NCBI RefSeq assembly: GCF_024700885.2
Contig: NZ_CP117016.1
Strand: one strand, 5' to 3'
Origin: Escherichia coli
GTDB lineage: Bacteria > Pseudomonadota > Gammaproteobacteria > Enterobacterales > Enterobacteriaceae
DNA: 64,000 nt
The position numbers and the translations under genes are program-made. How positions within the stretch are numbered: position 1 is the stretch's first letter; every line of letters begins with the position of its first letter. This document shows, in pieces, positions 20,428-58,244 of this stretch. Under the pieces are notes generated by a model that was not told the DNA's origin, did not search any database, and saw only the letters and a program-made list of their open reading frames with translations.

Positions 20428-21243
20428 CTACGAATTGATATGTTCCTTGCTGTAACGTCGCTTCCACGCAGCTGGCGTTAAACCGGTGTGTTTGCGAAAA
20501 ATCTGCCGGAAATAGCCAACGTCATTAAACCCACACAACGCCGCCACTTCCGTGAGCGATCGCGCTTCGCTAATTAACAGCTTTTCGGCTTCGCGCACTC
20601 GCTGGCGATGGATTGCTTCTGTTAACGTCAGATGAAACACCCGCCGATAGACGCGCCCAAGATAATCGGCATTGCAGTACAGCTCGCGGGCTAAAAGCGC
20701 CGTGGAAAGCGGGCGATGATATTGCGTGCGGATCAGTTTCTGCGCTTTCCAGGCAAGCGTGGTACCTGCGGCATCGGCCTGTTCATCAAGACGCGCGTCA
20801 CGGGTGAGTTGCTGCAAAATCAGCAGCACAATAAACTCCAGCGCCGGAGTGCGTTGATGCTTTTCCTGTTCGCTTAAGAACTGGCGAAACAGGGCCACCA
20901 GCGCCTGCGGATCGGCAACCTTCGTTTGTTGCGGCACGCTAAGATGAGTGAGCCAGCGCGGGTCGCTATCCGGCGCTTTAACCTCAAAATGCAGCCAGTA
21001 AAATTTGAGATCGGCGGGAAAATCCTCTACCCCAACATGCTGTCGGTTCGGCCAGAGTAATAAACTCTCTCCCGCATCGACCAGAAATATCCGCTCTTCT
21101 TCCTGAATCGTTAATCGACCTTTTTCGACAAAGATAATTTCCCATGACTCCAGCCGCCTTGCCGGATGCCTCCCTACGCCACGGGAAATAAATAATCCAC
21201 CATTTTGCACTTTAATCGGTAACGTCATGGATAATTCGAGCAT
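20428..21243 (-). CDS. AraC-family transcriptional regulator (accessory)
   Basis: 271 aa; C-terminal AraC HTH (…LTEVAALCGFNDVGYFRQIFRKHTGLTPAAWKRR); N-terminal cupin-like sugar-sensing half. True start may be Met 6. Confidence 0.8.
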   Translation of the reverse strand: MLELSMTLPIKVQNGGLFISRGVGRHPARRLESWEIIFVEKGRLTIQEEERIFLVDAGESLLLWPNRQHVGVEDFPADLKFYWLHFEVKAPDSDPRWLTHLSVPQQTKVADPQALVALFRQFLSEQEKHQRTPALEFIVLLILQQLTRDARLDEQADAAGTTLAWKAQKLIRTQYHRPLSTALLARELYCNADYLGRVYRRVFHLTLTEAIHRQRVREAEKLLISEARSLTEVAALCGFNDVGYFRQIFRKHTGLTPAAWKRRYSKEHINS

Positions 21244-21289
21244 TGATATGTAATTTCCCGCTTATTCATTAATGATTAAACACATTACC

Positions 21290-21308
21290 TTTTGATTATT
21301 AATCAAAA
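21290..21308. promoter_or_regulatory. Perfect 9-1-9 palindrome in the divergent AraC/transporter promoter region
   Basis: TTTTGATTA-T-TAATCAAAA read directly from the sequence; candidate operator. Confidence 0.3.
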
Positions 21309-21468
21309 ACATTAATTTCACCTGATCCATTTCACACTTTTAAATTCAGGTCGGAATCGTCACCTTTTTTTACTCTTTTCTCGCCTTGTTGATATTCCCG
21401 TTCACGGCAGAATTAATCATGTCATTGCAATAAAACTAAAAATTGCTCCCTATTCACGAGGAATATCT

Positions 21469-22869
21469 ATGACCTCTACACCGATTACTACCGCTGATAT
21501 CGCTAAAGGTAAAATTGACGATGCGTTATCTGTACGGGAAAAAATAGGCTACGGCCTGGGTGACGCAGGCGGCACCGTAATAACTTGCCTGATCATGAAC
21601 TTTCTCACCTTTTTCTACACCGACGTTTTTGGCTTAACTCCGGCGCTGGTCGGCACGCTGTTTATTGCACTGCGCGTGTTTGATGCCATCTCCGACCCGG
21701 TGATGGGCGTCATTGCCGACCGGACGCAAAGTCGCTGGGGGCGCTTTCGTCCGTGGCAGTTATGGATTGCCATTCCCATCGGCATTATCGGCATCCTGAC
21801 GTTCACCGTGCCAGATGCCAGCATGGGAGTAAAAATCGCCTGGGCGTTCGGCACTTACCTGCTCCTTTCAGTCGGTTATACCGCCATCAACGTGCCGTAC
21901 TGCGCGCTGATCAACACCATGACCACCCGCCACAATGAAGTGATCTCCTGCCAGTCCTGGCGATTCGTTCTCTGCGGCGTAGCGGGATTTCTGGTTTCGG
22001 TTGGCCTGCCGTGGATGGTGGATCTCTTCGGTCAGGGTAATGCCGCGCGCGGCTATCAACTGGGCGTCGGCGTATTGTGCGCCATCGCTGTGGTGATGTT
22101 CCTGTGCTGTTTCTTCTGGGTTCGTGAACGGGTACCACTCTCCACAATGGGGAAATTTACCCTGCGCGAACATCTTGCCGGGCTGCGAAACAACGACCAA
22201 CTGCTGCTGATGCTGGTCATGTCTTTCCTGCTGATTAACGTCTTTAACATTCGCGGCGGTGGGTATATGTACTTCATTACCTACGTCTTACAAGGCAGTA
22301 CGGGCTACACGTCGCTGTTCTTCACCATGGTCACCTTCGCCTCCATTATCGGCTCGGTGATTGTCAGCCCGTTAACGCGACGTTTCGATACCGTCAAAAT
22401 TTACTACTACACCAACCTGCTCCTCGCCGCGCTGGCGGTGTTGATGTGGTTCCTGCCTTCTGGCCCGGCTTATCAAACGCTGTGGCTGGCGGTGATCCTC
22501 GGTAATGGCGTGATTCTTGGCTTCACATTGCCATTGCACTTCTCATTGATGGCCTTTGCCGATGACTACGGCGAGTGGAAAACCCGCGTACGTTCTTCCG
22601 GCATGAACTTCGCCTTCAATCTGTTTTTCATCAAACTGGCCTGGGCCTCCAGCGCCGGGATCATCAGCCTGCTGTTTATTTTTGTCGCCTACCAGCCAGG
22701 CGTGGAAAACCAGACCACCAGTTCGCTTGGCGGGATCACGGCGATGGAAACATTACTGCCTGCGCTATTCCACCTGCTGCTGGCAGGGGCGATCCGCTTT
22801 TGCAAACTCAATAACCCTATGATGTCACGCATTGCTACCGACCTGCGTCAGCGTCATGTACAGCCTTAA
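21469..22869 (+). CDS. GPH-family (glycoside-pentoside-hexuronide) cation symporter
   Basis: 466-aa 12-TM-like protein with the GPH/MelB-like signature near the N-terminus (…GYGLGDAGG…[13 protein letters not shown]…). Confidence 0.8.
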
Positions 22870-24915: not shown

Positions 24916-25326
24916 TTAAACGCCCGGCAATACACGCCGGGCAGCTTCCGCCAGAAACGCACTTCTGTTGGCATAGTCTGGGTTATTGCGCACGTAGGTA
25001 TCAATCTTGTTCAGTAATCTTTTTGGCATCGTAATATTGATACGTTCAGCCCGACCTTCGAACTGATTCATATTGATATCCACCAGCAACCATTGCCCGC
25101 CAATAAAGTCCTGCGCACGCTGGACCAGATGTGTTTCCACAGAGCCTGGAAGCGGCAACTCTTCATTCATCTCGCATAAGGTTTCGAAGTGCGCGACCAG
25201 TGCACTTCGCGCATCCTGGAAAGCGTAGTCCAGCGTATCACCAGCAAAATAACAGCCTGGAACATCAGGGAAAAAACCGCTGGCGCTGCCGTCAGGATCA
25301 CTGTGGATATAGGCGGGATAAAACAT
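24916..25326 (-). CDS. hicB: HicB-family antitoxin
   Basis: 136 aa; HicB-like N-domain plus C-terminal ribbon-helix-helix-like segment (RINITMPKRLLNKID…RSAFLAEAARR); 16 bp after hicA. Confidence 0.7.
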   Translation of the reverse strand: MFYPAYIHSDPDGSASGFFPDVPGCYFAGDTLDYAFQDARSALVAHFETLCEMNEELPLPGSVETHLVQRAQDFIGGQWLLVDINMNQFEGRAERINITMPKRLLNKIDTYVRNNPDYANRSAFLAEAARRVLPGV

Positions 25327-25342
25327 ATTGCCTCCTGAAATT

Positions 25343-25528
25343 TTAAAATGTTAAACCAGCCTGACGCCCAATTTGCGCCAGCGTACCGGGCTTAATATCT
25401 TTTTTAGGGTGCGGAACCGTCACCAGACCCGGATGAACAGGGTGGCGGAACTGATGACGACTGCCACGGGTTCGAATATGTTCCCAGCCATGCTGCTTCA
25501 GGATGGCGATCACGTCTGCACTTTTCAC
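25343..25528 (-). CDS. hicA: HicA-family mRNA interferase toxin
   Basis: 61 aa; HicA/YcfA-like (…HGWEHIRTRGSRHQFRHPVHPGLVTVPHPKKDIKPGTLAQIGRQAGL). Confidence 0.7.
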   Translation of the reverse strand: MKSADVIAILKQHGWEHIRTRGSRHQFRHPVHPGLVTVPHPKKDIKPGTLAQIGRQAGLTF

Positions 25529-26000
25529 ATCCCTGCCCTTCCATGATTATACACACGATACACACACAATTAGCGATAACAATCACGATAGCGCGATTTA
25601 TATGGGCCGTCAGGGGGATAAAGTTGACTCAGGAATGCCGCTCGGAAGAAGAATAACGGTGTGCAGTAATTGGTAGAAAATATGCGAGGATGCTCGCAAT
25701 TTACATATAACTCATAGTATTAGGTGTTAAAAAATCTGTATTAGATTATCCATGCGATATCGAAGCTAGTCTTGCTATAGCTCCAACTCGTATTCATTGA
25801 ACGTTTAAAACAACCAATAAAAGACACTGTTTTATTTTCTTGATAAATATCAAGTTTGTTTCACCATTGTATTTACAATGTGCAAACATTATTTTTTGTG
25901 TGTTATACATTAACTATGACCAATGATAAAGCGTTAATATATAAATATTTTCTATATTTTTATCAAACGCATTTTTATTAAATATATATAAGGAGTTATA

Positions 26001-27080
26001 ATGTCTATGGAGTTTATAGATAAGCTGAATTCATTATCCGCAAAAATAAAACAACAAGCCGGAGTCATTGAAACGGAGGAAGCTACCAAAAATGCTTTCG
26101 TAATGCCGTTCATTAACAATGTGTTAGGTTATGATGTCTTTGATCCTACCGAAGTTATCCCAGAGTTTGTATGCGATATTGGAACGAAGAAAGGTGAAAG
26201 GATTGACTATGCAATCTTAAAAAATAGCGAGGTTCAGATTCTCATTGAATGCAAAAAAATTGGCGATCCTCTAAATATAAATCATGCTTCACAGCTTTTT
26301 CGATACTTTCATGTAACAAATGCAAGAATATCTATTCTAACCAATGGACAAGTTTATAAATTTTTTACTGATTTAGAAGCACCTAATAAAATGGATGAAA
26401 AACCATTTCTTGAGATAGATCTACTTGACTTAGACGAAACAGTTGTTCCCGAGATAAAGAAGCTTACTAAATCAGCATTTGATTTGGAATCAATAATTAA
26501 TGCTGCAGGTGAATTAAAATATGTTAGTTTAATTAAAAAAGTTCTCCATGCACAAATGAATAATCCTGAAGAGGATTTTGTAAAATTCTTTGCAGCAAGA
26601 ATTTATGAAGGTATGTTAACACAAAAGGTAAAAGATACGTTTGCAAAATTAACAAAGAAAGCTGCCAATCAATATATTAACTCTCAAATAAACGAAAGAT
26701 TGAAATCGGCAATAGGTGGTGGGTCATTATCTGTAATTGATTCGAATTCACACAATGAGGAAGTTGAATGTATTAATAAAGAAGAAACCGATATTGCCAC
26801 TACTATGGAGGAACTTGAAGGATTTCATATTGTTAAAGCTATAGTTCGCGTAGTGCTTGATGCACCACGAATAGTCCACAGAGATACAAAAAGCTATTTT
26901 GGTATACTTGTAGATGACAATAATCGAAAGCCACTCTGTAGATTACATTTCAATCGAAATCAAAAATATATTGGTTTATTTGACTTAGAGAAAAACGAAA
27001 CCCGCCATCCTATTGAATCTCTCGATGATATTTATTCTTTCAGCGATGAGTTGAAAGCGACTGCCGCTTTATACAACTAA
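26001..27080 (+). CDS. Orphan HsdR-N-like PD-(D/E)xK nuclease-domain protein (candidate defence gene)
   Basis: 359 aa; aaggag RBS 5 nt upstream; N-terminal region carries D69 (RIDYAIL) and E83-x-K85 (ILIECKK) in the arrangement of type I restriction enzyme R-subunit N-terminal domains. Strongly AT-rich gene and upstream region. C-terminal about 100 aa of unknown function. Confidence 0.7.
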   Translation: MSMEFIDKLNSLSAKIKQQAGVIETEEATKNAFVMPFINNVLGYDVFDPTEVIPEFVCDIGTKKGERIDYAILKNSEVQILIECKKIGDPLNINHASQLFRYFHVTNARISILTNGQVYKFFTDLEAPNKMDEKPFLEIDLLDLDETVVPEIKKLTKSAFDLESIINAAGELKYVSLIKKVLHAQMNNPEEDFVKFFAARIYEGMLTQKVKDTFAKLTKKAANQYINSQINERLKSAIGGGSLSVIDSNSHNEEVECINKEETDIATTMEELEGFHIVKAIVRVVLDAPRIVHRDTKSYFGILVDDNNRKPLCRLHFNRNQKYIGLFDLEKNETRHPIESLDDIYSFSDELKATAALYN

Positions 27081-27083
27081 AAC

Positions 27084-27116
27084 AAAGGCAGACAACTATT
27101 AACGTTGCCTGCCTTT
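27084..27116. terminator. Bidirectional hairpin terminator between the nuclease-like gene and aldB
   Basis: aaaggcagacaa…ttgcctgccttt inverted repeat in the 40-bp convergent spacer. Confidence 0.5.
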
Positions 27117-27120
27117 CACA

Positions 27121-28659
27121 TCAGAACAGCCCCAACGGTTTATCCGAGTAGCTCACCAGCAGGCACTTGGTTTGCTGGTAATGCTCAAGCATCATTTTGT
27201 GGGTTTCGCGGCCAATGCCTGATTGTTTGTAGCCACCAAACGCCGCATGTGCCGGGTAAGCGTGATAACAGTTGGTCCACACGCGCCCGGCCTGAATGCC
27301 GCGCCCCATCTTATAGGCCAGATTACCGTTGCGGCTCCAGACACCCGCGCCCAGGCCATATTTCGTGTCGTTCGCCAGCTCCAGCGCTTCTTCCATCGTT
27401 TTGAAGGTGGTCACCGCCAGCACCGGGCCAAAAATCTCCTCCTGGAACACGCGCATATTATTCTGACCAAACAGAATCGTCGGTTCGAGGTAGTAGCCGT
27501 CTTTCAGTTCGCCTTCCAGCAGCTTGCGCCGCCCGCCGGTGAGCACATCAGCGCCTTCTTTTTTACCGATATCAATGTAATTGAGGATGGTTTCCAGTTG
27601 CCCGTGCGAAACCTGCGCTCCCATTTGCGTCACGCTGTCGAGTGGGTTACCGCTACGAATGCTTTCGACACGGCGGATGGCGCGTTCCATAAAGCGTTCG
27701 TAGATAGACTCCTGTACTAAAGCACGGCTTGGACAGGTGCAAACTTCGCCCTGGTTAAAGGCAAACAGTGCAAAGCCTTCCAGCGCTTTATCGAAAAAGG
27801 CATCTTCTTCATCCATCACATCAGCAAAGAAGATATTTGGCGATTTGCCGCCCAGCTCCAGGGTTACCGGAATAATGTTTTGCGTAGCGTATTGCATAAT
27901 TTGTTGGCCCACTTCCGTTGAGCCGGTAAACGCCACTTTAGCGATGCGTTTCGAGGTCGCCAGATATTCGCCAATTTCCCCACCTGCACCGTTGACCACG
28001 TTCACCACGCCTGGCGGCAGTAAATCACCGACGATTTCCATTAGCAGCAGTACAGAAAGCGGGGTAAGACGTGCGGGTTTCAGCACCACACAGTTGCCCG
28101 CCGCCAGCGCGGGGGCCATTTTCCAGCTCGCCATCAGCAGCGGGAAGTTCCACGGAATAATCTGCCCCACCACGCCTAACGGTTCGTGGAAGTGATAAGC
28201 CACGGTTTCGCTATCCACTTCACTAATACCGCCTTCCTGCGCCCGAATACACGAGGCGAAATAGCGGAAATGGTCAATCGCCAGCGGCACATCGGCAGCA
28301 CTGGTTTCGCGAATGGGTTTGCCGTTATCCCAGGTTTCAGCGGTCGCTAACAGTTCGAGGTTCTGCTCCATCCGATCGGCGATCTTAAACAGAATCGCCG
28401 CGCGCTCCTGCACCGAAGTATGCGCCCATTTATCTTTCACTTTGTGCGCAGCATCCAGCGCCAGATCGATGTCTCGTTTGCCCGAAGACGCCACTTCGCA
28501 CAGCAGCTGCCCGGTCACCGGCGTCAGGTTCTGGTAATACTCGCCGTCGGCAGGGGCTACCCACTCGCCGCCGATAAAGTTGTCATAACGGGCTTTTAAC
28601 TTAAGAGGAAAACCATACTCGCCGGGCTTAATCTGTGCTGAAGGGGGATTATTGGTCAT
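27121..28659 (-). CDS. aldB: Aldehyde dehydrogenase B
   Basis: 512 aa from [17 protein letters not shown]…; ALDH catalytic motifs (…ELGGKSP…, …[12 protein letters not shown]…). Track ORF has a 30-codon upstream extension, rejected. Confidence 0.9.
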
Positions 28660-28859: not shown

Positions 28860-30011
28860 TTACATCGCAGCGCGATAAATCGCCACAATTTCTTCGTGAG
28901 TTGCCTGAATCGGGTTAGTAAACCCACACGCATCTTTCAGGGCATTGGTGGCCAGTACCGCGAAATCCTCTTCTTTCACGTTCAGGTCACGCAGGCCTGC
29001 CGGGATATTCACTTTCTTCGCCAGTTCACGGATGGCATTGATGCACGCTTCTGCGCCTTCCGCGTCATTTTTGCCTGTCACGTTCACGCCCATAGCAGCA
29101 GCACAGTCACGCAGACGCGCAGCGGCGACTTTGCTGTTGAATACCTGAACATGCGGCAGCAGAACGGCGTTACATACACCGTGCGGCAGATTGTAGAAAC
29201 CGCCCAGCTGGTGCGCCATCGCATGAACATAACCCAGAGAAGCGTTGTTGAATGCCATGCCAGCGAGGAACTGGGCATAAGCCATTGCTTCACGCGCTTT
29301 AGCATTGCTGCCATTTTCAACGGCTAACGGCAGGTTTTCGGCAATCATGGTCACCGCTTTCAATGCACAAGCGTCAGTGATCGGCGTGGCAGCAATAGAA
29401 ACATACGCTTCGATAGCGTGCGTTAAGGCATCCATACCCGTTGCGGCGGTCAGTGACTGCGGCATACCAATCATCAGAGAGGAGTCATTGACAGAAAGCA
29501 ACGGAGTGACATGTTTATCAACAATCGCCATTTTGATATGACGCGCTTCGTCAGTGATGATGCAGAAACGGGTCATTTCAGAGGCCGTACCCGCCGTGGT
29601 GTTGATGGCGATCATCGGCAGCTGCGGTTTTGCAGAGCGGTCAACGCCTTCGTAATCGCGAATATCGCCGCCATTGGCTGCCACCAGCGCAATACCTTTT
29701 GCGCAGTCGTGCGGAGAACCACCGCCTAAGGAGATCACGCTATCGCAATTATTTTCTTTAAGTAATTTCAAACCTGCAGCGACGTTTTCCGTGGTGGGGT
29801 TAGGTTGGGTGCCATCATAAATAACGCTAAAAATATTGCGTTCTTCCAGTGCTTTTTGCACATCACCCGCCATACCCAATTTCGTTAACATATTGTCAGT
29901 GACAATTAAGGTACGGGTAAATCCATAATCTGCCATCATATTCATTGCATCATTCAATGAATCAGCACCAATAACATTCACGGAAGGAATAAAAAAGGTT
30001 GAAGCTGCCAT
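28860..30011 (-). CDS. yiaY: Iron-containing alcohol dehydrogenase
   Basis: 383 aa; Fe-ADH family (GGGSPHD-type motif present as …[12 protein letters not shown]…). Confidence 0.9.
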
Positions 30012-30109
30012 AACACACTCCTGAAAGTGTAAAAAAGGGCGGGCAGCTTACTGAGGATTTTCATTCGAAAATATGATCAGTATTATTGTTTATCAAAATT
30101 AATCTAATA

Positions 30110-30147
30110 AAAAGCACATTGTATTCATTAAACAATGTGCTTTTTTT
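30110..30147. terminator. Rho-independent terminator downstream of selB (bidirectional form)
   Basis: aaaagcacattgt-attcattaa-acaatgtgcttttttt: 9-bp stem flanked by A and T runs. Confidence 0.55.
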
Positions 30148-30200
30148 AAATTCATAAGAATTTTGTATTAATTTATTTTAAAACTTAATTAATCATTTCC

Positions 30201-32045
30201 TTATTTTTCCGGAAATAATAATGCGTCGCGCAATAAATGATCATTTCCCCGACGACGCGTAAAACCAATGCGGTCAAAATATTCCAGAATTTGAATTGCC
30301 AGTTTTCGACCAACACCTAAACGATCGCGGAAATCCGCCGCGCAGGTTGAACCACATTCCTGATCGAGATCGCGGATCATATTGGCAAATTCGACAATCC
30401 GATCGTTACGGTAATAACGATCTTTAACGATCGCCGTAATTATCCCCTGCTGGGCCGCCTGGCGTAGAGTCAGGCGCATTGCCTGCTCGTCGGTTCCCGT
30501 CTCTTTTGCCAGGTCTCGCACCCACCACGGTTCGTCACCAAACAGCGGCTCTGCTTTTTGCCAGATGGCCTGCTGCTCTTCGCTGAAGCCCGCTTTGTGA
30601 TCCGGCAGATGCAGCCAGCCGTGATGACTGAGGATGTCGCCGCTTTCGCGCATCTTTTCAATCAGCAACAGTACCAGCGCTTCATCTTCCATTGGCAACG
30701 CCATACGTCGCAGACGTTCGCGCCCAGGACCAGGTTCATCGCGATGTTGCTCATGATAAGTCGCTAATGTGTCGAGAATTTTCCGCTGCCAGCGAGCGGC
30801 AACCGGCGCATTCAACAAGCTATAACCAGCCTGAATATAGCCAGGCTGTTGCAGCAGTTCGCGCATCCCTTCGCCGTTGAGCTGCCGTGCCCAGGCGAAA
30901 TCCGCAAGGTTAACCGCTCCGCGTTCCAGATGAACAGATAACGCATCGGCATCGCTCTGCGCCCGTGCAAGAGACGCCAGCCATTGCAGATATTCCGGCT
31001 TACGCTTACCGCGACGCGGCGGGTTAAGCATCACCACACGCGCCCCCGCCAGCGTGTTGCGGGCCGAGATATCGCGCAGCACTAAGCGATCGTTATCCGC
31101 CAGCCACAGCGGCGTGTCGAACACCAGCTCGGCAAGGTTATCTTCCAGCAGCGAAACGCGTCCCGTAACGTGGCTGGCGGCGTGGTGAATATGCAGCGGC
31201 TGCCACTGGGTCAGCGGTGTATGGGTTTGAAGCTCGACAATCACCCGTGTGAACGGCTCCGGCGGCGCATCGGCAAGCAGCCAGTCGCCACGGTTAATCT
31301 GCTCTTTTTCCGCATCACCCGCGATGTTAAGCGCGATACGCTGCCCGGCATGGGCAGTTTCTGTTGGCTGATTTTGCGCATGTAGCGCACGCACGCGCAT
31401 CGGTTTATTTACACCAGTCAGCCAGAGTGAATCGCCTACCTTCACTTCCCCGCTTAACGCCGTACCGGTGACGACCAGCCCGGCACCTTTTACGGTAAAT
31501 GCACGGTCGATCGCGAGGCGGAAACTATGTTGGCTGGCGTGTTCGCGTTCTGGTAACTGAAGCAGATGCTCGCGCAGGGCATCAATTCCCCGACCTTCGG
31601 TTGCTGCGGTGATAAACAGTTTTGCCTCAGCAAAACCGTATTCCCGTAGCACCTCCTTTACCTGGCGTTCAACCTCATCAACACGCGCTTCGTCCACGCG
31701 ATCGGCTTTGGTCAGCGCCACTGTCAGCATCGGATTACCGGTCAGCTGCAAAATCGCCAGATGCTCACGGGTCTGTGCCATCACGCCGTCATCGCACGCC
31801 ACCACCAACAGCGCGTGATCGATACCACCAACGCCCGCCAGCATGTTGGAAAGAAACTTTTCATGACCGGGTACGTCGATAAAACCAGGCACGCGACCAT
31901 CCGGCTGCGGCCAGTAGGCATAGCCGAGATCGATAGTCATGCCGCGCTTTTTTTCTTCCGGCAGACGATCGGCATTTACGCCAGTAATCGCCTGCAATAA
32001 GGTTGTTTTGCCGTGGTCAACGTGTCCGGCAGTCGCAATAATCAT
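30201..32045 (-). CDS. selB: Selenocysteine-specific elongation factor
   Basis: 614 aa; N-terminal GTPase ([18 protein letters not shown]); overlaps selA by 4 nt. Confidence 0.95.
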
Positions 32046-34367: not shown

Positions 34368-37300
34368 ATGAGCGGAAAACCGGCGGCGCGTCAGGGCGAC
34401 ATGACGCAGTATGGCGGTAGCATTGTTCAGGGTTCAGCCGGGGTACGTATTGGTGCCCCCACCGGCGTGGCCTGTTCGGTGTGCCCCGGCGGGGTGACGT
34501 CCGGCCATCCGGTCAATCCGCTGCTCGGTGCGAAGGTCCTTCCCGGCGAAACCGACCTTGCCCTGCCCGGCCCGCTGCCGTTCATCCTCTCCCGCACCTA
34601 CAGCAGTTACCGGACAAAAACGCCCGCGCCGGTGGGGAGCCTCGGCCCCGGCTGGAAAATGCCCGCGGATATCCGCTTACAGCTGCGCGATAACACACTG
34701 ATACTCAGTGATAACGGCGGCAGGAGCCTGTATTTTGAGCACCTGTTTCCCGGTGAGGACGGTTACAGCCGCAGCGAGTCACTCTGGCTGGTGCGCGGCG
34801 GCGTGGCGAAACTGGATGAAGGTCACCGGCTGGCCGCACTCTGGCAGGCACTGCCGGAAGAGCTTCGCCTGAGTCCGCATCGTTATCTGGCGACGAACAG
34901 TCCGCAGGGGCCGTGGTGGGTACTCGGCTGGTGTGAGCAGGTGCCGGAGGCGGATGAGGTGCTGCCCGCGCCGCTGCCGCCGTACCGGGTACTGACCGGG
35001 CTGGTGGACCGCTTCGGGCGCACACAGACGTTTCACCGTGAGGCTGGCGGCGAAATCACCGGCGTGACGGATGGCGCAGGCCGTCACTTCCGGCTGGTAC
35101 TGACCACGCAGGCGCAGCGGGCAGAAGAAGCCCGGCAGCAGGCCATTTCCGGCGGGACGGAACCGTCCGCTTTTCCTGATACCCTGCCGGGTTACACCGA
35201 ATATGGCCGGGACAACGGCATCCGTCTGTCTGCCGTGTGGCTGACACACGACCCGGAATATCCGGACAACCTGCCAGCCGCGCCGCTGGTACGCTATGGC
35301 TGGACGCCGCGTGGCGAACTGGCGGCGGTGTATGACCGCAGCAATACACAGGTGCGCAGCTTTACTTACGATGATAAATACCGGGGCCGGATGGTGGCGC
35401 ACCGTCACACGGGCCGACCGGAAATCCGTTACCGTTACGACAGTGACGGGCGGGTGACAGAACAGCTAAACCCGGCGGGCTTAAGCTACACGTATCAGTA
35501 TGAGAAAGACCGCATCACCATCACCGACAGCCTGGACCGCCGTGAAGTCCTGCACACGCAGGGCGAAGGCGGGCTGAAGCGGGTGGTGAAAAAGGAACAC
35601 GCGGACGGCAGCGTCATGCAGAGTCAGTTTGACGCGGTGGGCAGGCTTAAGGCACAGACGGATGCCGCAGGCCGGACGACTGAGTACAGCCCGGATGTGG
35701 TGACGGGACTCATCACGCGCATCACCACACCGGATGGCAGGGCATCGGCATTTTACTATAACCACCACAACCAGTTAACGTCAGCCACCGGGACTGACGG
35801 GCTGGAGTTGCGCCGGGAATATGATGAATCCGGCCGTCTGATTCAGGAAACCGCACACAACGGCGATATCACCCGCTACCGTTATGATAATCCACACAGT
35901 GACTTACCCTGCGCAACGGAAGATGCCACCGGCAGCCGGAAAACCATGACATGGAGCCGTTACGGTCAGTTGCTGACCGTCACTGACTGTTCCGGTTATG
36001 TAACCCGTTATGACCATGACCGTTTTGGTCAGGTGACGGCGGTGCACCGCGAGGAAGGGCTGAGTCAGTACCGCGCATACGACAGCCGTGGACAGTTAAT
36101 TGCGGTGAAAGACACGCAGGGCCATGAAACGCGGTATGAATACAACGCCGCCGGTGACCTGACCGCCGTCATTGCCCCGGACGGCAGCAGAAACGGGACA
36201 CAGTACGATGCGTGGGGAAAGGCCATCCGTACCACGCAGGGCGGTCTGACGCGCAGTATGGAATACGATGCTGCCGGACGGGTCATCCGCCTGACCAGTG
36301 AAAACGGCAGCCACACCACCTTCCGTTACGATGTACTTGACCGGCTGATACAGGAAACCGGCTTTGACGGCCGCACACAGCGTTATCACCACGACCTGAC
36401 CGGCAAACTTATCCGCAGCGAGGATGAGGGGCTGGTCACCCACTGGCACTATGACGAAGCAGACCGCATCACGCACCGCACCGTGAAGGGTGAACCGGCA
36501 GAGCAGTGGCAGTATGATGAACGCGGCTGGCTGACACAAATCAGCCATCTCAGCGAAGGCCACCGGGTGACGGTGCATTACGGGTATGATGAGAAAGGCC
36601 GCCTGACCGGTGAGCGCCAGACGGTGCATCACCCGCAGACGGAAGCACTGCTCTGGCAGCATGAAACCAGACACGCTTACAACGCGCAGGGACTGGCGAA
36701 CCGCTGTATACCGGACAGCCTGCCCGCCGTGGAATGGCTGACTTACGGCAGCGGCTGGCTGGCAGGCATGAAACTCGGCGACACACCGCTGGTGGAGTAT
36801 ACCCGCGACCGCCTGCACCGGGAAACGCTGCGCAGCTTCGGCCGTTATGAACTCACCACCGCTTATACCTCTGCCGGGCAGTTACAGAGCCAGCACCTGA
36901 ACAGCCTGCAGTATGACCGCGATTACACCTGGAACGACAACGGCGAACTCATCCGCATCAGCAGCCCGCGACAGACCCGGAGTTACAGCTACAGCGACTC
37001 CGGCAGGCTGACCGGCGTCCACACCACCACCTCAAATCTGGATATCCGCATCCCGTATGCCACGGACCCGGCAGGCAACCGCCTGCCCGACCCGGAGCTG
37101 CACCCGGACATCACCCTCAGCATGTGGCCGGATAACCGTATCGCCCGTGACGCGCACTATCTTTACCGGTATGACCGTCACGGCAGACTGACGGAGAAAA
37201 CCGACCTCATCCCGGAAGGGGTTATCCGCACGGACGATGAGCGGACTCACCAGTACCATTACGACAGTCAGCACCGGCTGGTGCACTACACGCGGACACA

Positions 37301-38555
37301 ATATGCAGAGCCGCTGGTCGAAAGTCGCTATCTTTACGACCCGCTGGGCCGCAGGGTGGCAAAACGGGTATGGCGGCGTGAACGGGACCTGACGGGCTGG
37401 ATGTCGCTGTCACGGAAACCGGAAGTGACCTGGTACGGCTGGGACGGCGACCGGCTGACCACGATACAGAACGACAGAACCCGCATCCAGACGGTTTATC
37501 AGCCGGGGAGCTTCACGCCACTCATCAGAGTTGAAACCGCCACCGGTGAGCTGGCGAAAACGCAGCGCCGCAGCCTGGCGGATGCGCTTCAGCAGTCCGG
37601 CGGCGAAGACGGTGGCAGTGTGGTGTTCCCGCCGGTGCTGGTGCAGATGCTCGACCGGCTGGAAAGTGAAATCCTGGCTGACCGGGTGAGTGAGGAAAGC
37701 CGCCGCTGGCTGGCATCGTGCGGCCTGACGGTGGAGCAGATACAAAACCAGATGGACCCGGTGTACACGCCGGCGCGAAAAATCCACCTGTACCACTGCG
37801 ACCATCGCGGCCTGCCGCTGGCGCTTGTCAGCACGGAAGGGGCAACAGAATGGTGCGCAGAATACGATGAATGGGGCAACCTGCTGAATGAAGAGAACCC
37901 GCACCAGCTGCAGCAGCTCATCCGCCTGCCGGGTCAGCAGTATGATGAGGAGTCAGGCCTGTATTACAACCGCCACCGCTATTATGACCCGCTGCAGGGG
38001 CGGTATATCACTCAGGATCCGATTGGGCTGAAGGGGGGATGGAATTTTTATCAGTATCCGTTAAATCCGGTTCAGTATATAGATTCAATGGGACTGGCAT
38101 CTAAATATGGACACTTAAATAATGGCGGATATGGAGCGAGACCCAACAAACCGCCTACGCCCGATCCAAGTAAGTTGCCAGACATAGCGAAACAATTAAG
38201 ACTGCCATATCCTATTGACCAGGCCAGTAGTGCGCCTAATGTTTTCAAAACATTCTTCAGAGCATTAAGTCCTTACGATTACACACTGTATTGCAGGAAG
38301 TGGGTAAAACCCAATCTGACTTGTACGCCGCAGGATGATCCCCAGTATCCAGGGATGGAGACAAAGACAGCAAGTGATTACCTGCCACAGACAACTTGGC
38401 CAACAACTCAATTACCACCAGGATATACTTGTGCAGAACCCTATTTATTCCCAGACATTAATAAACCCGATGGGCCAGCAACAGCAGGGATAGATGATTT
38501 GGGTGAAATTTTAGCTAAAATGAAACAGAGAACATCGAGAGGAATAAGAAAATGA
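34368..38555 (+). CDS. rhsA: Rhs-family polymorphic toxin (RhsA locus) with a divergent C-terminal toxin domain
   Basis: 1395 aa; N-terminal PAAR-like region, long YD-repeat core (…YRYD…, …YDxxGR…), the core-end motif …[31 protein letters not shown]…, then an AT-rich, compositionally distinct C-terminal tip of about 155 aa. Confidence 0.9.
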
Positions 38556-39121
38556 AAAGAGCTTTGTTCTTTTTGCTGATGATATTCGTTAGTTTTGGTG
38601 TTATAGCTAATTGCGAAACACAAGCTAAAGATCAAGATTGCTTTACCATTTTCACTAAGGGTACTATTTTTTCCGCGTTTCCTGTCTTAAATAATAAAAC
38701 CATGTGGAGATGGTATCAGAATGAGGACATAGGTGAGTATTATTGGCAAACAGAGCTTGGTATATGTAAAAATAACAAATTCACACCAAGCGGGGCGAGA
38801 CTCTTAATTCTCGTCGGATCACTACGCCTTAATGAAAATCATGCAACCAAAGGAACGTTGCAGGAGTTGCTAAATACAGCAGAAAAAACGGCGTTTCTCG
38901 GCGATCGGTTTAGAAGTTATATAAGAGCGGGTATCTATCAAAAAAAGAGCAGTGATCCAGCTCAGTTGTTGGCAGTCCTTGATAATTCAATCATGGTTAA
39001 ATATTTTAAAGATGAGAAGCCAACTTATGCTCGAATGACAGCACATCTCCCGAACAAAGATGAGTCTTACGAATGTTTAACAAAAGTACAGCATGAACTG
39101 CTTCGTAGTGAAGAAAAATAA
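38552..39121 (+). CDS. Putative cognate immunity protein of the rhsA C-terminal toxin
   Basis: 189 aa; start overlaps the rhsA stop (ATGA); AT-rich; N-terminal hydrophobic leader ([19 protein letters not shown]) suggests export. Role inferred from position only. Confidence 0.5.
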
Positions 39122-39289
39122 AATCTCTTCCTGAGAAAATAAATTAACTATTCGAAAAAATATGTTCTTAATGGGTATCCAGGAACACCAGAAGGTCGAT
39201 TTGGAAAAATGGATTCCGATGGTAAGAATATCATATATTCTGAATGTAATGTTTTACCCACAACTTTTGAGATTCGATAGGTGTAGAGC

Positions 39290-39637
39290 ATGAGAAACTC
39301 ACTAATATTACTTATTATGATATTGTTTACAATATCACACTCAGTATTTGGAAAAGAAAATTCAGCGGAAATTTTAGTAAATAGTCGTGAAATGGCTTTG
39401 GAATTATCATATGTTTATATTAAATATATATACGGGAAAGAAAAAGCAGAATTTCAGAAACCATATAGTATTACAGATGACAATAATTGTTGGAAAATCG
39501 AGGGAAAACAACCGAAGACGTTAGGAGGAAATTTTACAATACTAATAGCGAAAAAAGATGGGCAAGCGTTGGATGTAATACACAAAATAATCCACTGTTC
39601 AGACGATTCAAATATTTTACCAAGGTGTGTTTCGTAA
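39290..39637 (+). CDS. Small secreted immunity-like protein
   Basis: 115 aa; signal-peptide-like N-terminus; paralogous to the frameshifted ORF at 41240-41507. Confidence 0.45.
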   Translation: MRNSLILLIMILFTISHSVFGKENSAEILVNSREMALELSYVYIKYIYGKEKAEFQKPYSITDDNNCWKIEGKQPKTLGGNFTILIAKKDGQALDVIHKIIHCSDDSNILPRCVS

Positions 39638-39799
39638 CTATTTTGTGTACAATATGACTCTACATATCGACGAAAAAACCACTTGATTTGACAGGAACAC
39701 ATTCAAAAAAATTTCTTTTTCATTTCAGGAGCGATTTTCATCTGTTACTTGAAGTATCTGTGAGATTAAGTGACTCCCCCTAACGTCGTACTAAATAGT

Positions 39800-40100
39800 A
39801 ATTACTGGCCATACCGGGAGCAGTATTCGGCGCTTCCCACATGCAGCAGAATAACCGCATCAGCGAAGATGTATTGTATTTTTACTATCACAATGTGTAC
39901 GGACGGTTTATGGAAAAGAATGAACATTAGATACGCGATGCGGCGGCAGGTTACACGGTTATCACTACGATAGCCAATACTGGCTGGTGCATTACCGCCG
40001 TGAACAATAGGACGCCGTACTGCTGGAAATTTCTTACCTTTATGACTCCCCGCGCCGCCGTATTGGGAAACGGGAAGCAATCAAGATGAGGCTGATATAA
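39800..40100 (+). pseudogene. Degraded Rhs core remnant 1
   Basis: Translates in pieces to …QNNRISEDVLYFYYHNVYGRFMEKNEH*… and …HYDSQYWLVHYRREQ*…YLYDSPRRRIGKREAIK…, alignable to rhsA residues …[26 protein letters not shown]…[13 protein letters not shown]…[13 protein letters not shown]…; in-frame stops. Confidence 0.55.
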
Positions 40101-40297
40101 TGTGCGGAATGCCTGAGTATTTTTAGAATAGGGGGGTAATATGTTTGATAGAATATATCTTGGTGATCGAGCAATAAAAAATTGAATTTGATTTATGGAG
40201 TAAACAAATTAGAATTCAGGTTAATTTAATCTCAAGGATAGCCTATGGTACAACAGAATGGAATTTTTATGATAATGAAGACTTAGAAGATGGTTAT

Positions 40298-40540
40298 TTG
40301 GTATTTTCAGATGTTAGTTTCTTCAATATAACTCCTAATGGCTCTATTCCAGATGATTATATAATTTCAATAATTACAGATAATGTCAATGTTGAATATT
40401 TTGAATCAACTATAGTTGCTGTTGGTCAAATTCGAAACACAAATGTTGGTGACATTGATAATATTGGTGAATGTCAAATTTTCATCAGGTATAAAGACAG
40501 CTGGATTGAGAATAAACTCAAAGAAAAAATAATTGAATAA
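40298..40540 (+). CDS. Hypothetical small protein (TTG start in track)
   Basis: 80-aa ORF in the AT-rich spacer after Rhs remnant 1; no recognisable motif. Confidence 0.25.
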   Translation: MVFSDVSFFNITPNGSIPDDYIISIITDNVNVEYFESTIVAVGQIRNTNVGDIDNIGECQIFIRYKDSWIENKLKEKIIE

Positions 40541-40639
40541 CCATGTTATGTATAGACATTTTAGATGGAACGAACCAGAGGAAGGCATGCCTCCGACTTG
40601 GGTTATATGGGCACGGAGTTTTAGTGTAGTGAACTCAAC

Positions 40640-40710
40640 GACGCAAACCGAATAACCTGCCGCTGGCGCTTATCAGCACGTAAGGGACAACAGCGTAGTA
40701 CGTAGAATAA
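40640..40710 (+). pseudogene. Degraded Rhs core remnant 2
   Basis: cctgccgctggcgcttatcagcacgtaagggacaacag… matches the rhsA core segment cctgccgctggcgcttgtcagcacggaaggggcaacag… at about 37810. Confidence 0.45.
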
Positions 40711-40792
40711 TCCTACCCACGTAGTATGGACACAGGCCTAAGCGAGGTTCTGGTTTTCAAATTTTTCGGGAGTTAGATGATTGGAGGAACAG

Positions 40793-41158
40793 ATGATAAG
40801 AATCGCATTTTTAATAACCAATAAATTTCTTGAGATAGATAGTACCACTCTTGCTGGATATGATTTTAGCGGGATGAATCTACATCGTGCCACCCTCAAT
40901 GGTTATTGTCTTGATGGGGCGAAATTTGAAAAAACTCATTTAAGAAATGTAATGATTCAACATACATCAACTAGAAATGCTGTCTTTCGCAATGCGGCTC
41001 TGATGAATGCTATTCTGAATAACTCAGATTTCACTGGAAGTGATTGTAGTAATTCAAGGTCAATAGGTGAAAATTTTAAAGCAATAGATAATCATGGGAA
41101 AGATATAATAAATGGAAAAGGATTGCCTAATGTTTGCAAAATACATGACAACGTATAA
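40793..41158 (+). CDS. Pentapeptide-repeat protein
   Basis: About 121 aa from MIRIAF (ggagga RBS); tandem pentapeptide-like repeats (…ATLNGYCLDGAKFEKTHLRNVMIQHTSTRNAVFRNAALMNAILNNSDFTGSDCSNS…). Confidence 0.5.
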   Translation: MIRIAFLITNKFLEIDSTTLAGYDFSGMNLHRATLNGYCLDGAKFEKTHLRNVMIQHTSTRNAVFRNAALMNAILNNSDFTGSDCSNSRSIGENFKAIDNHGKDIINGKGLPNVCKIHDNV

Positions 41159-41239
41159 GAAAATATTATTCAGAACCTATGTGATTGTATCTTTATTTTT
41201 ACATACAACACATGGGCGCAGTGTAATAATATTATTATA

Positions 41240-41507
41240 ATGCGCAAGTATGAAAGTGAGGGGAAATACACCGTTAGAAATTTGGTCAAAAATAAAGCTA
41301 TAGCATTGGAATTAGCTGAGATGTATGTTAAAAATCGTTATGGACATGATGCCGAAGAAGAAAAAAAAACCATACAAAATCATGGAATTACCAACAAGTT
41401 GGATTGTTGAAGGCACCATTGAATCAGACCAAATTGCTGGTAGGGTTTTTATTATAGAAATAGGCAAAAATGACGGGAGAATTCTAAATTTTGGCCACGG
41501 AAAATAA
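41240..41507 (+). pseudogene. Frameshifted paralog of the 39290-39637 immunity-like gene
   Basis: Frame 1 from ATG 41240 reads MRKYESEGKYTVRNLVKNKAIALELAEMYVKNRYGHDAEEEKK, then an A9 homopolymer (41361-41369) shifts the frame into the track ORF 41325-41507 (…PYKIMELPTSWIVEGT…GKNDGRILNFGHGK). Removing one A restores an intact reading frame of about 88 codons. Confidence 0.5.
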
Positions 41508-41611
41508 GTATGTAAGGATAAACAAACATCGTGTGTGCTGATGGCAGAGTAGGTGGAGGACTCCAGACAGTCAAACGATAGAAAAAGATAGTCTTTATGG
41601 AGGTTCCTGCA

Positions 41612-42454
41612 ATGTCGAATACATACCAGAAAAGAAAGGCAAGTAAAGAGTATGGTTTATACAATCAATGTAAGAAACTAAATGATGATGAATTATTTCG
41701 CTTACTTGATAATCGCAATTCATTGAAAAGGATTTCATCTGCCAGAGTATTGCAGCTAAGAGGTGGGCAAGACGCTGTTAGATTGGCAATTGAATTCTGC
41801 GCTGACAAAAATTATATCCGTAGAGATATAGGAGCATTTATACTCGGGCAAATAAAAGTTTGCAAAAAATGCGAAGATAGCGTTTTTAATATTTTAAAAA
41901 AGATGGCACTGAATGATAAAAGTGCTTGCGTTCGAGCTACAGCAATCGAGTCAACTGCTCAGCGATGCAAGAAAAACCCAATTTATTCACCTAAAATAGT
42001 AGAACAATCTCAAATTACTGCTTTTGATAAATCGGCTAATGTCAGACGTGCTACGGCATTTGCTATTTCTGTTATCAATGATAAAGAAACAATTCCACTA
42101 TTGATTAATCTGTTAAAAGATCCAAATGGAGATGTCAGAAACTGGGCCGCATTTGCAATAAATATCAATAAATATGATAATAGTGATATTAGGGATTATT
42201 TTGTGGAGATGCTTCAGGATAAAAATGAGGAAGTCCGTATTGAAGCAATAATCGGACTTTCCTACAGAAAAGATAAAAGGGTTTTATCTGTTTTATGCGA
42301 TGAGTTAAAAAAAAATACTGTTTATGATGATATCATTGAAGCTGCGGGTGAATTAGGTGATAAAACGCTACTTCCTGTTTTAGATACTATGTTGTACAAG
42401 TTTGATGACAATGAAATTATAACTTCCGTTATTGATAAGCTGAAGCGTTCATAG
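41612..42454 (+). CDS. yibA: HEAT-repeat protein YibA
   Basis: 280 aa from MSNTYQKRKASKEYGLYNQ…; recognised as the K-12 rhsA-adjacent YibA. Track start is 5 codons upstream. Confidence 0.85.
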   Translation: MSNTYQKRKASKEYGLYNQCKKLNDDELFRLLDNRNSLKRISSARVLQLRGGQDAVRLAIEFCADKNYIRRDIGAFILGQIKVCKKCEDSVFNILKKMALNDKSACVRATAIESTAQRCKKNPIYSPKIVEQSQITAFDKSANVRRATAFAISVINDKETIPLLINLLKDPNGDVRNWAAFAININKYDNSDIRDYFVEMLQDKNEEVRIEAIIGLSYRKDKRVLSVLCDELKKNTVYDDIIEAAGELGDKTLLPVLDTMLYKFDDNEIITSVIDKLKRS

Positions 42455-42495
42455 CGTGAGTTGCCTATGCACAGTGAGGTATTCCCGCCGGCACG

Positions 42496-43305
42496 GTGCA
42501 GATGCTCGACCGGCTGGAAAGTGAAATCCTGGCTGACCGGGTGAGTGAGGAAAGCCGACGCTGGCTGGCATCGTGCGGCCTGACGGTGGCGCAGATGCAA
42601 AACCAGATGGACCCGGTGTACACGCCGGCGCGAAAAATCCACCTGTACCACTGCGACCATCGCGGCCTGCCGCTGGTGCTTATCAGCACGGAAGGGGCAA
42701 CAGAATGGTGCGCAGAATACGATGAGTGGGGCAACCTGCTGAATGAAGAGAACCCGCACCAGCTGCAGGGGCGGTATATCACTCAGGATCCGATTGGACT
42801 GAAGGGGGGATGGAATTTTTATCAGTATCCGTTGAATCCGATAACTGATATTGACCCGTTGGGATTAGCGACCTGTTTATACAGCATAACTTTAGGTATG
42901 CTTTCATGCGTTTCAGATACGCCAAGTGATGATAATTCTTATGGTGTGCTTACTATTTCAGTCGCCTCTGGTAATAATGGTAATAATATGCAATGTAAAA
43001 ATAATCCTGGTTGTACACACTTACAAAATAGAGGCCCAATACCTCCAGGGGTATGGAGCTGGAATGTTAATGGTCCTGGAGCAACTAATAGAAAACCTAA
43101 TGGTATACGTTTAGTACCGTCAGCAAATACAGAAACGTATAATCGTGATGGATTTTTAACACATAGTTGTTTAAACGCTTTTGGTCCATCTTTAGGACCT
43201 CGATTCTGTTCCGAGGGTTGTATAACTGGTTCATCTAATGACATGCAAAAATTAAATGAGCTAATATTTTCAGAGCCAGATAGCACATTAACAGTGACGG
43301 ACTAG
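42496..43305 (+). CDS. yibJ: Orphan Rhs C-terminal fragment with Cys/Gly-rich toxin-like tip
   Basis: 269-aa ORF; its first about 100 aa match the end of the rhsA core (…[16 protein letters not shown]…[18 protein letters not shown]), with a 28-codon deletion spanning [12 protein letters not shown]. Symbol from position. Confidence 0.65.
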
Positions 43306-43309
43306 AAAT

Positions 43310-43705
43310 ATGGCAAGGTTATTAACAATTGTGCTTTTTTTCTCTATTTCTGCGAATGCAGTTACTGTAAACCAATTTCAGAGAGAGTTGGATTTGGCAG
43401 ACAAGGCAATATTATGGGCACTAATATCAGCCAGTACCCAAGAGGGACGAAAAGCGTGTTCACTTAGCTATTTTTCATGTAAAGCCGCAGAGGCTGAACT
43501 CGGACTGGCATATATGGCTGCTAATGATAACAAGGCATTTCTCACATCCTTATCTAGAATAATGATGTACAAAATAGATGCTGGACTTTCCGAATCCTAT
43601 ACATGCTATTTATTAAGCAAGGGAAAGATCATAAGACCATATCTGAAGAATCTAAATCCACACCAACTTGTCGCTGATTGCATTGAAACTGTAAATAAAA
43701 GATAA
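43310..43705 (+). CDS. yibG: Small secreted protein, putative immunity partner of the yibJ fragment
   Basis: 131 aa; signal-peptide-like N-terminus (MARLLTIVLFFSISANA); 4 bp after yibJ. Symbol assigned by position only. Confidence 0.4.
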   Translation: MARLLTIVLFFSISANAVTVNQFQRELDLADKAILWALISASTQEGRKACSLSYFSCKAAEAELGLAYMAANDNKAFLTSLSRIMMYKIDAGLSESYTCYLLSKGKIIRPYLKNLNPHQLVADCIETVNKR

Positions 43706-44283
43706 AAATAAAAAAATCATTGATATAGATTCAGTTAATATTTGCAATGATAATAAAAATATAAATTGGAGAGTTAATAGTACTATTGTAGCCATTGATG
43801 ATTCTATAAAATGCATCGATGAATAATAACTTAATTATATTTAAAAATATATTAATGACTCACTCTCCAGGAGTTTTTTAACTTAGTGTTATAATGAATA
43901 CGATAATTAAAAGTGAAGAGAAAAATAGTTGTATACATATATTACATGAACCTACATTGTGATCTATAAATTAAATATTTTTAAATGTGACTGTCATCCT
44001 TCAGATAATAAAGCCATCATCGCAATAGATGGAAAAGCACTCCTGCTCTTTTTTGATTAGAGCCGTGGCAGAGGAACAACTCATATCATCATTGCGATCT
44101 CGACAATGTATGGTCTGATCCTTCGGCAGATCAAGACGGATAAAAAATCCAATGAGTTCACACTCATCCCGAACTTCTTAACATAATGGATATTAACGAA
44201 AAATCATCGCAGCCAATGAAGTAATATGCAAAAATAATTAGTCCTTACAGGGAGCAAAGTTCCATAATCTCCCCCTTCCCTAC

Positions 44284-57947: not shown

Positions 57948-58244
57948 TGATCCATTAACTTAGTGTGACTAAGGGCAATTCTCTGATGAGGATTGCCCTT
58001 TTCTTTACCAGACATCTCCCTCCACCAAGAATTGGCCCTACCAATTCTTCGCTTATCTGACCTCTGGTTCACAATTCCCCAATTAAAACTCACATCAATG
58101 TTGCCAATGCATAACATTTAGTTAACCATTCATTGTCATTATCCCTACACAACACAATTGGCAGTACCACTTTTACACAACGTGTGACAAGGAGATGAGC
58201 ATCAGACTCATTACACGATGTGCGTGGACTCCAGGAGACCTGCA

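Follow-up and report, generated by a model that had tools for sequence, protein, structure and literature searches.

What does a solitary gene for a restriction-type nuclease do in an AT-rich islet of the Escherichia coli chromosome? We addressed this question for a stretch of 64,000 nucleotides (the window; contig NZ_CP117016.1), which is chromosomal and collinear with strain elppa4 (NZ_CP083512.1) at 99.96% identity or more. The gene under study is the open reading frame (ORF) at 26001-27080 on the plus strand, whose 359-residue product (RefSeq WP_000061479.1) is labelled 'type I restriction endonuclease' by the Prokaryotic Genome Annotation Pipeline (PGAP). An earlier note, made from the letters of the window alone, had taken it for an orphan nuclease with a single-gene role in defence. 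We found a conserved protein with an intact RecB/HsdR catalytic motif and a C-terminal domain of its own, whose relatives are carried by temperate phages next to the repressor. A single-gene role against phages or plasmids appears to be the best reading; it rests mainly on the position in prophage immunity regions and on domain fusions, evidence absent from the earlier note. We give the defence role, as a restriction or exclusion nuclease, a probability of about 0.5.

Domain organisation of the nuclease

Two Pfam families matched the N-terminal part of the protein, HSDR_N (PF04313) at residues 52-129 (E 3.7e-8) and HSDR_N_2 (PF13588) at residues 27-123 (E 5.3e-8), and no family, helicases and methyltransferases included, was matched past residue 130. 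Conservation was assessed in an alignment of 75 homologues, one for each distinct 50%-identity cluster. K30, E55, D69, E83 and E271 were invariant in all 75, while K85, Q98, R101, Y102, T267, T268, D295 and R314 were conserved in at least 90%; the conservation of the motif far exceeds chance. The motif residues lie in PEFVCD (E55 and D59), RIDYAIL (D69) and LIECKK (E83-C-K85), and the four catalytic codons, each in a conserved column, were placed on the plus strand at 26163-26165 (E55), 26205-26207 (D69), 26247-26249 (E83) and 26253-26255 (K85). QxxxY (Q98 to Y102; 26292-26306, plus strand, again in conserved columns) is a RecB-family motif that is also present in the HsdR of EcoR124I. As these residues are invariant or at least 90% conserved, the RecB/HsdR set of an acidic residue, D, ExK and QxxxY is intact. 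The earlier note had proposed an HsdR-N-type PD-(D/E)xK domain with an intact motif, and the Pfam matches, the 75 homologues and the residue numbering, which was correct, all bear this out. Mg2+-dependent nuclease activity can be predicted from these features of the sequence.

The AlphaFold2 model, built from the 75-sequence alignment, had a mean predicted local distance difference test score (pLDDT) of 92.5 and showed the nuclease and helical domains followed, beyond a disordered linker, by a compact alpha/beta domain, four parts in all. The nuclease domain (residues 1-140; 26001-26420, plus strand, like the parts that follow) consists of an N-terminal helix and a PD-(D/E)xK core of HsdR-N/RecB type, as supported by Pfam, the conserved columns, Foldseek and a pLDDT of 90-98. 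In the Foldseek comparison with the PDB, the N-terminal domain resembled the Vibrio HsdR fragment 3h1t with a probability of 1.00, along with other restriction-endonuclease-like folds. The helical middle domain (residues 146-239; 26436-26717) contains helices at residues 146-153, 162-187, 191-201 and 208-239. It is followed by an acidic, disordered and hypervariable linker (residues 240-266; 26718-26798), in which pLDDT dropped below 50 at residues 242-252 and 257-261, and by an alpha-beta5-alpha domain (residues 267-359; 26799-27077) with the motifs TTxEExEGF, RD..SY and DDNNRKPxCRL. Mean identity to the E. coli query was 56% in the nuclease core, 37% in the helical domain, 9% in the linker and 47% in the C-terminal domain. 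No significant sequence match in the PDB was obtained with the protein, the family profile or the C-terminal profile.

With an identity this close to that of the nuclease core, the C-terminal third is a real, constrained domain. It is 93 residues long, acidic rather than basic in composition as read from the sequence, and predicted by the model to adopt a compact frataxin/YjbR/MotA-CTD-like fold (CTD, C-terminal domain). The earlier note could assign no motif to this region, and a Pfam search with the domain alone likewise returned no family. The top 50 matches listed in AFDB50 all belonged to the same nuclease family, and when other architectures containing the domain were sought, mostly short fragments were returned. 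In the single case looked at more closely, on a Deefgea sp. chromosome, the family member (2356-3447 of the stretch examined) is a split pseudogene broken into three ORFs, namely a 130-residue HSDR_N piece, a 51-residue piece and a 148-residue C-terminal piece. Short database proteins that hold only the C-terminal domain may include such disrupted copies, or cuts at short contigs, rather than stand-alone proteins. The domain is private to the nuclease family, and its role is presumably the recognition of a target.

A degenerate, functionless remnant of hsdR from a type I system would account for the PGAP name and for Pfam matches confined to the N-terminal families of HsdR. This reading is extremely improbable, and we ruled it out on the conserved full-length architecture and on the rates of substitution. 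An arrangement of about 350-370 residues with its own C-terminal domain is kept in more than 1000 clusters, the high mean pLDDT speaks for an ordered protein, and nonsynonymous divergence (dN) lies far below synonymous divergence (dS), with dN at 0.11-0.16 and dS saturated among Enterobacteriaceae orthologs. No remnant of a helicase is left, and no hsdM, hsdS or DNA methyltransferase gene is annotated in the collinear NZ_CP083512.1 over the whole span of the window. The absence of helicase and translocase domains, also claimed before, agrees with the length of only 359 residues, with the Pfam result and with the helical and alpha/beta domains of the model. Having neither motor domains nor hsdM or hsdS, the protein is indeed an orphan nuclease and not a type I R subunit, and the PGAP label is a misnomer.

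Family spread, position in phages and domain fusions

We used HMMER to search 1.84 billion cluster representatives and recovered 5310 proteins at E<=1e-3, with 1210 clusters at 50% identity at E<=1e-30; nearly all members are 340-390 residues long and match end to end. Residues 3-356 of the E. coli protein aligned with positions 2-352 of the 357 in PHROG 4225, 'endonuclease' (E 2.5e-130), and this full-length match supports the coding sequence given by the ORF and by PGAP. Homologues in Citrobacter, Enterobacter and Salmonella were 78-85% identical to the E. coli protein, those in Pseudomonas about 70%, and those in Arthrobacter and other Actinobacteria 55-60%; members from phages of Porphyromonas, Corynebacterium, Enterococcus, Streptococcus, Fusobacterium and clostridia were 36-50% identical. 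The family was found in species of at least five phyla and in at least 528 IMG/VR viral contigs, and plasmid-borne members were also found.

The family itself is not new, being already catalogued in databases. Besides its PHROG entry, C-terminal fragments of the family, 52-68% identical, bear the Joint Genome Institute (JGI) label 'predicted type IV restriction endonuclease'. PF04313, PF13588, COG4748 and COG2810 were grouped together in the PD-(D/E)xK survey of Steczkiewicz et al. 2012 (PMC3424549), and COG4748 has been counted as a restriction endonuclease in Tn7 cargo (PMC8649781). The tie of the family to COG2810 and COG4748 is indirect, by way of the JGI label and the grouping of Steczkiewicz et al. 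Because of these PHROG, JGI and COG labels, we regard the family as already known bioinformatically as a stand-alone HsdR-N nuclease. A 347-residue HsdR-N protein, mentioned as a correlate only in a phage-resistant Campylobacter jejuni strain (PMC8713573), is a candidate member. No indication of membership was found in the paper on a Cupriavidus 'predicted type IV' enzyme, and the enzymes in a Borrelia review are bbe02 and bbq67.

In seven of eight annotated phage genomes inspected, the gene followed that of a repressor or ImmA protease in the same orientation. These were Streptococcus pneumoniae IPP25, Corynebacterium Juicebox, Fusobacterium FNU_1P, Enterococcus EG-TP1, Lacticaseibacillus P7.1, Acetoanaerobium ANDSL2_ph1 and Klebsiella KpF5, the last with a 31%-identical relative. 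Four of the seven also had an annotated integrase gene beyond it in the downstream direction, again on the same strand. The exception is represented by Porphyromonas phages, where the gene follows HicA-HicB within the structural module. Neighbour statistics for IMG/VR were taken from the 80 best loci of the at least 528 contigs. There, position -1 was occupied by a co-oriented repressor-like protein (PHROG 4, PHROG 4583) in 28 of the 80 loci, and an ImmA-like protease and an integrase were also recurrent neighbours, the integrase lying downstream in 20 loci and upstream in 3. On contigs of at least 20 kb, the downstream end was no more than 6 kb away in 30 of 54 cases and the upstream end in 10 of 54. 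Genes that are expressed in the lysogen, lambda rexAB for one, occupy this position. Since temperate phages carry the gene next to the repressor, a one-gene weapon against phage or plasmid DNA seems probable.

The tight setting between repressor or ImmA and integrase could also suit a gene that works for the prophage or mobile element itself, by addiction or stabilisation, by degrading host or competitor DNA at induction, or by aiding excision or immunity switching. Toxin-antitoxin genes that recur nearby (HicAB in several lineages, RES on a Kocuria plasmid) would be in line with such a role. However, chromosomal copies mostly stand alone, without a surrounding prophage, and no partner resembling an antitoxin is conserved; the copy in E. 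coli likewise lies outside any prophage. As solitary chromosomal copies are under purifying selection, the protein appears to be useful without a phage, and we consider a function for the element improbable.

Additional modules were found in longer relatives: TerD at the N-terminus (E 1.8e-25 and 6.5e-17), RAMA at the C-terminus (E 1.4e-13), or a C-terminal SeqA-C-like module, for which the best single-sequence Pfam match had an E of 5.5e-5 and four SeqA chains of the PDB gave E 0.08-1.2. In three metagenomic relatives TerD preceded the complete nuclease architecture, to which it was joined via a Pro/Ala-rich linker. RAMA and SeqA-C have been linked to adenine-methylated DNA, and TerD to Ter stress or phage-resistance loci. 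The fusions connect the family with restriction-type biology, and that with TerD connects it with Ter-type stress or phage-resistance biology. They also suggest that the reading of DNA modification is relevant in at least some members.

The main rival to a restriction nuclease is a trigger-gated nuclease of the abortive-infection (Abi) or Shedu-like type, autoinhibited by its C-terminal domain or linker until a phage protein, free ends or replication intermediates activate it to degrade DNA indiscriminately. Such a mechanism is favoured by the hypervariable, acidic and disordered linker that adjoins the invariant TTxEE motif, and by a C-terminal domain that is acidic rather than basic. It would need a single gene and no methyltransferase, as found here, would be at home in the immunity region, where Rex-type exclusion genes sit, and would work whatever the methylome of the host, in keeping with the cross-phylum spread. 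We still judge it rather unlikely, as no PADLOC model for Shedu or for an Abi system showed any likeness, and the RAMA and SeqA-C-like fusions point to DNA modification rather than to the sensing of a protein.

The E. coli islet and its neighbours

Three alleles of the locus were found in E. coli: GH127-hicBA-gene-aldB, GH127-hicBA-aldB and GH127-aldB. Alignment of the alleles set the bounds of the islet at about 25701-27119 (about 1.4 kb), where it stands in place of about 95 bp of sequence resembling repetitive extragenic palindromic (REP) elements in the alleles that lack the gene. Homology to the allele with hicAB and without the gene stops at about 25700, and the head of the islet (25701-26000, plus strand) is AT-rich and non-coding, with a G+C content of 0.25-0.29. 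Over about 25550-27200, G+C was 0.25-0.39 compared with about 0.50-0.58 in the flanks. The earlier note had described the gene and about 450 bp upstream as AT-rich; the low G+C of both was confirmed, and the allele comparison limits the upstream part of the islet to about 300 bp. The GH127-aldB interval (24916-25700 and 27084-27119) looks like a small insertion hot spot.

We found the islet in 191 of the 5426 complete E. coli genomes (3.5%), with copies that were always chromosomal, single in all but one genome and 98-100% identical. E. albertii also carries the gene. The ortholog of Citrobacter freundii lies between yiaW and aldB, and that of Enterobacter between ysaA and yiaT. In Citrobacter, in Escherichia sp. 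ESNIH1 and in a metagenome-assembled genome, nucleotide homology was unbroken from 28 bp before the start codon through the gene into aldB. The G+C content of the gene in these enterobacteria is 33-35% in genomes of 50-56%, and over 80 species genomes it was at least 5 points under the flanks in 70, with a mean difference of -10 points. Taken together, the same-junction orthologs, the saturated dS and the E. albertii copy indicate that the gene is old at the aldB junction within this clade. It is under purifying selection, and has been lost from most E. coli. Horizontal acquisition, proposed earlier from composition, thus stands in the sense of an accessory and compositionally foreign islet, and fails in the sense of a recent arrival, against which the Citrobacter and ESNIH1 orthologs, dS and E. 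albertii all argue.

The gene order to the left of the nuclease gene is sgbE/araD, an AraC-family regulator, a major facilitator superfamily (MFS) transporter, a GH127 hydrolase, and hicB and hicA on the minus strand; to the right of it (the gene itself being on the plus strand) follow aldB, yiaY, selB and selA on the minus strand. The neighbours hicAB, GH127 and aldB are those named before. As hicAB (24916-25528, minus strand) is also found at the locus without the nuclease gene, the two are independent insertions. In Enterobacter, a 24-residue hicB remnant, 92-96% identical to the C-terminus of E. coli HicB, lies just after the ortholog. HicA or HicB homologues were seen about 0-3 kb from family members on Pseudomonas chromosomes, in Porphyromonas phages and on three IMG/VR contigs, a recurrence that we judged to be above chance expectation, with most loci lacking HicAB. 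A functional link with HicAB was rejected, given the independent insertions in E. coli and the many loci without it. On the mobilisable Kocuria rosea plasmid NZ_CP126486.1 (3690-10396), a homologue stands beside a gene with a DUF4041 domain and near a RES-domain toxin gene; this was the only neighbourhood seen that resembled a defence or toxin-antitoxin cluster.

Four genes on each side were clustered for 69 genome loci. No neighbour family was common to more than 7 of the 69, those 7 being all syntenic Pseudomonas, and the nuclease gene therefore has no conserved partner gene.

The start codon is preceded by a good ribosome-binding site, AAGGAG, at 25990-25995 (plus strand). A hairpin with a 13-bp stem (27084-27116) occupies the space between the stop codon of the gene (27078-27080) and that of aldB; it is a terminator-like site, likely shared by the nuclease gene and aldB. 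An inverted-repeat search revealed short palindromes in the AT-rich leader at 25857-25888, 25903-25944 and 25840-25853 (TGTTTCACCATTGTA/TACAATGTGCAAACA; TTGATAAATATCAA), which are possible candidates for operator sites.

Apart from an Rhs element at a distance of 7-8 kb from the nuclease gene, the rest of the window is composed of housekeeping genes. The Rhs region (about 34370-43830) includes an RHS core protein gene of 4188 bp, followed by orphan toxin and immunity fragments (NTF2-fold immunity proteins, a tlde1-domain protein, Imm57 and frameshifted RHS pieces), and is inter-bacterial competition cargo. A YadA-like adhesin gene of 5.7 kb (about 52220-57950) has internal tandem repeats of about 234 bp at 53754-55258, detected as staggered self-matches at 88-95% identity. 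Further AT-rich intergenic stretches (G+C 0.29-0.39) were seen at 21050-21500, the divergent promoter region of the AraC-family regulator and MFS genes, and at 29900-30350, the yiaY-selB spacer.

Proposed function and likeness to known systems

We propose that the protein would act as a self-contained, Mg2+-dependent DNA endonuclease, in which the N-terminal HsdR/RecB-type nuclease (E55, D69, E83-x-K85, Q98xxxY102) is joined to the C-terminal alpha-beta5-alpha domain through the helical domain and the flexible acidic linker. The gene is accessory cargo of the immunity region of temperate phages, would be co-transcribed with the repressor in the lysogen, and persists in chromosomes and plasmids as a one-gene AT-rich islet. 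Its product would restrict or exclude incoming phage or plasmid DNA independently of a methyltransferase. Cutting by the nuclease domain would be licensed once the C-terminal domain had recognised something not present in resident DNA, most likely a base modification, as in type IV systems, or else a DNA structure or end. Dependence on modification specifically is a tentative part of the proposal. It is doubtful, though conceivable, that the C-terminal domain represents a novel type of sensor for a universal hallmark of invading DNA, or a dock onto a conserved host machine, and that the family constitutes an immune system of its own, made of one protein and carried in the immunity regions of prophages across phyla; such a sensor or dock would account for the 55-60% identity between Proteobacteria and Actinobacteria.

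Several observations weigh against a role in defence. That same identity between E. coli and Actinobacteria is unusually high across phyla for a defence gene, the place of the gene among metabolic genes is stable in Enterobacter and Citrobacter, and the chromosomal neighbours are housekeeping genes. A PADLOC scan of 27 neighbours from nine diverse species, a small sample, yielded no credible defence match, the sole match being a generic methyltransferase one (mad2, E 1.7e-6). The clustering of a defence island, which the earlier note had seen in the adjacent hicAB, consequently does not fit, the more so as hicAB occurs at the locus without the gene and the 69 loci share no neighbour. In E. coli itself, the protein has no RAMA, SeqA-like or TerD module, a simple promoter scan found no sigma-70-like site upstream of the start codon, and the AT-rich DNA of the islet might be silenced. 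The protein scored above the cutoff of no NCBIfam family, PADLOC-DB v2 has no model of the family's own, and no experimental test of any member was found in the searchable literature.

Some of these points would be expected of a housekeeping or repair and recombination nuclease, specific for structures such as forks, flaps or mismatches, that phages have borrowed. A cross-phylum identity of 40-60% is unusually high, the gene keeps its place among metabolic genes in two enterobacterial genera, no defence genes were seen among the 27 neighbours of the nine species, and many PD-(D/E)xK enzymes of the RecB type are established repair enzymes. A repair function would however sit poorly with a gene that only 3.5% of E. 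coli genomes carry, that is foreign in composition in 70 of 80 species, that has no conserved repair-gene neighbours and that exists in split pseudogene copies. Moreover, the phage copies accompany the repressor and integrase and not the early recombination or replication module. We therefore regard repair as quite unlikely, and retain restriction or exclusion of incoming DNA as the preferred reading.

What is new here is the fold of the C-terminal domain, the immunity-region position in temperate phages from several phyla, the absence of a partner gene, the low G+C content in 70 of 80 species and the fusions. If the protein does restrict phages or plasmids, the gene would be among the most widespread single-gene immunity determinants and a standard item of prophage immunity regions that is not modelled in PADLOC v2. 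A systematic misannotation as 'type I restriction endonuclease' would be corrected, and the protein would offer a compact two-domain model for how a nuclease discriminates self from non-self without a methyltransferase.

Among known systems, the HsdR subunits of type I enzymes (EcoR124I, 2w00; Vibrio vulnificus, 3h1t) share the PD-(D/E)xK fold and the set of acidic residue, D, ExK and QxxxY. Unlike them, the present protein has no superfamily 2 (SF2) motor and no HsdM or HsdS partners, is about one third of the size of HsdR, and has helical and C-terminal domains of its own. Residues 50-208 aligned with positions 61-217 of the PADLOC model REase_MTase_IIG (E 5.9e-7), so the nuclease and its first helices resemble the head of type IIG/IIL enzymes of the MmeI/BpuSI type. 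In contrast to these enzymes, the present protein lacks both a methyltransferase and a target-recognition domain, and its match is confined to the first fifth of the 1011-position profile.

Lambda rexAB, which follows cI, and morons of the sie or Abi type have the same position and orientation, toward the integrase or the prophage end; this likeness is positional only, with no kinship of sequence or fold to the present gene. Shedu SduA and PDC-S26 are likewise single-gene nucleases with an extra regulatory or sensor domain. The PADLOC candidate PDC-S26 gave a marginal match (residues 62-308, E 0.004), while the Shedu models gave none. DpnI, PvuRts1I/AbaSI and the MspJI family also combine, in one polypeptide, a nuclease with a small separate binding domain and have no cognate methyltransferase; the RAMA or SeqA-C-like modules of relatives and the JGI label are further points of likeness to this group. 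The C-terminal domain of the present protein differs from theirs, being of frataxin/YjbR/MotA-CTD-like fold and not an SRA, winged-helix, YTH or EVE domain. In being a nuclease without a cognate methyltransferase, the protein resembles the type IV enzymes.

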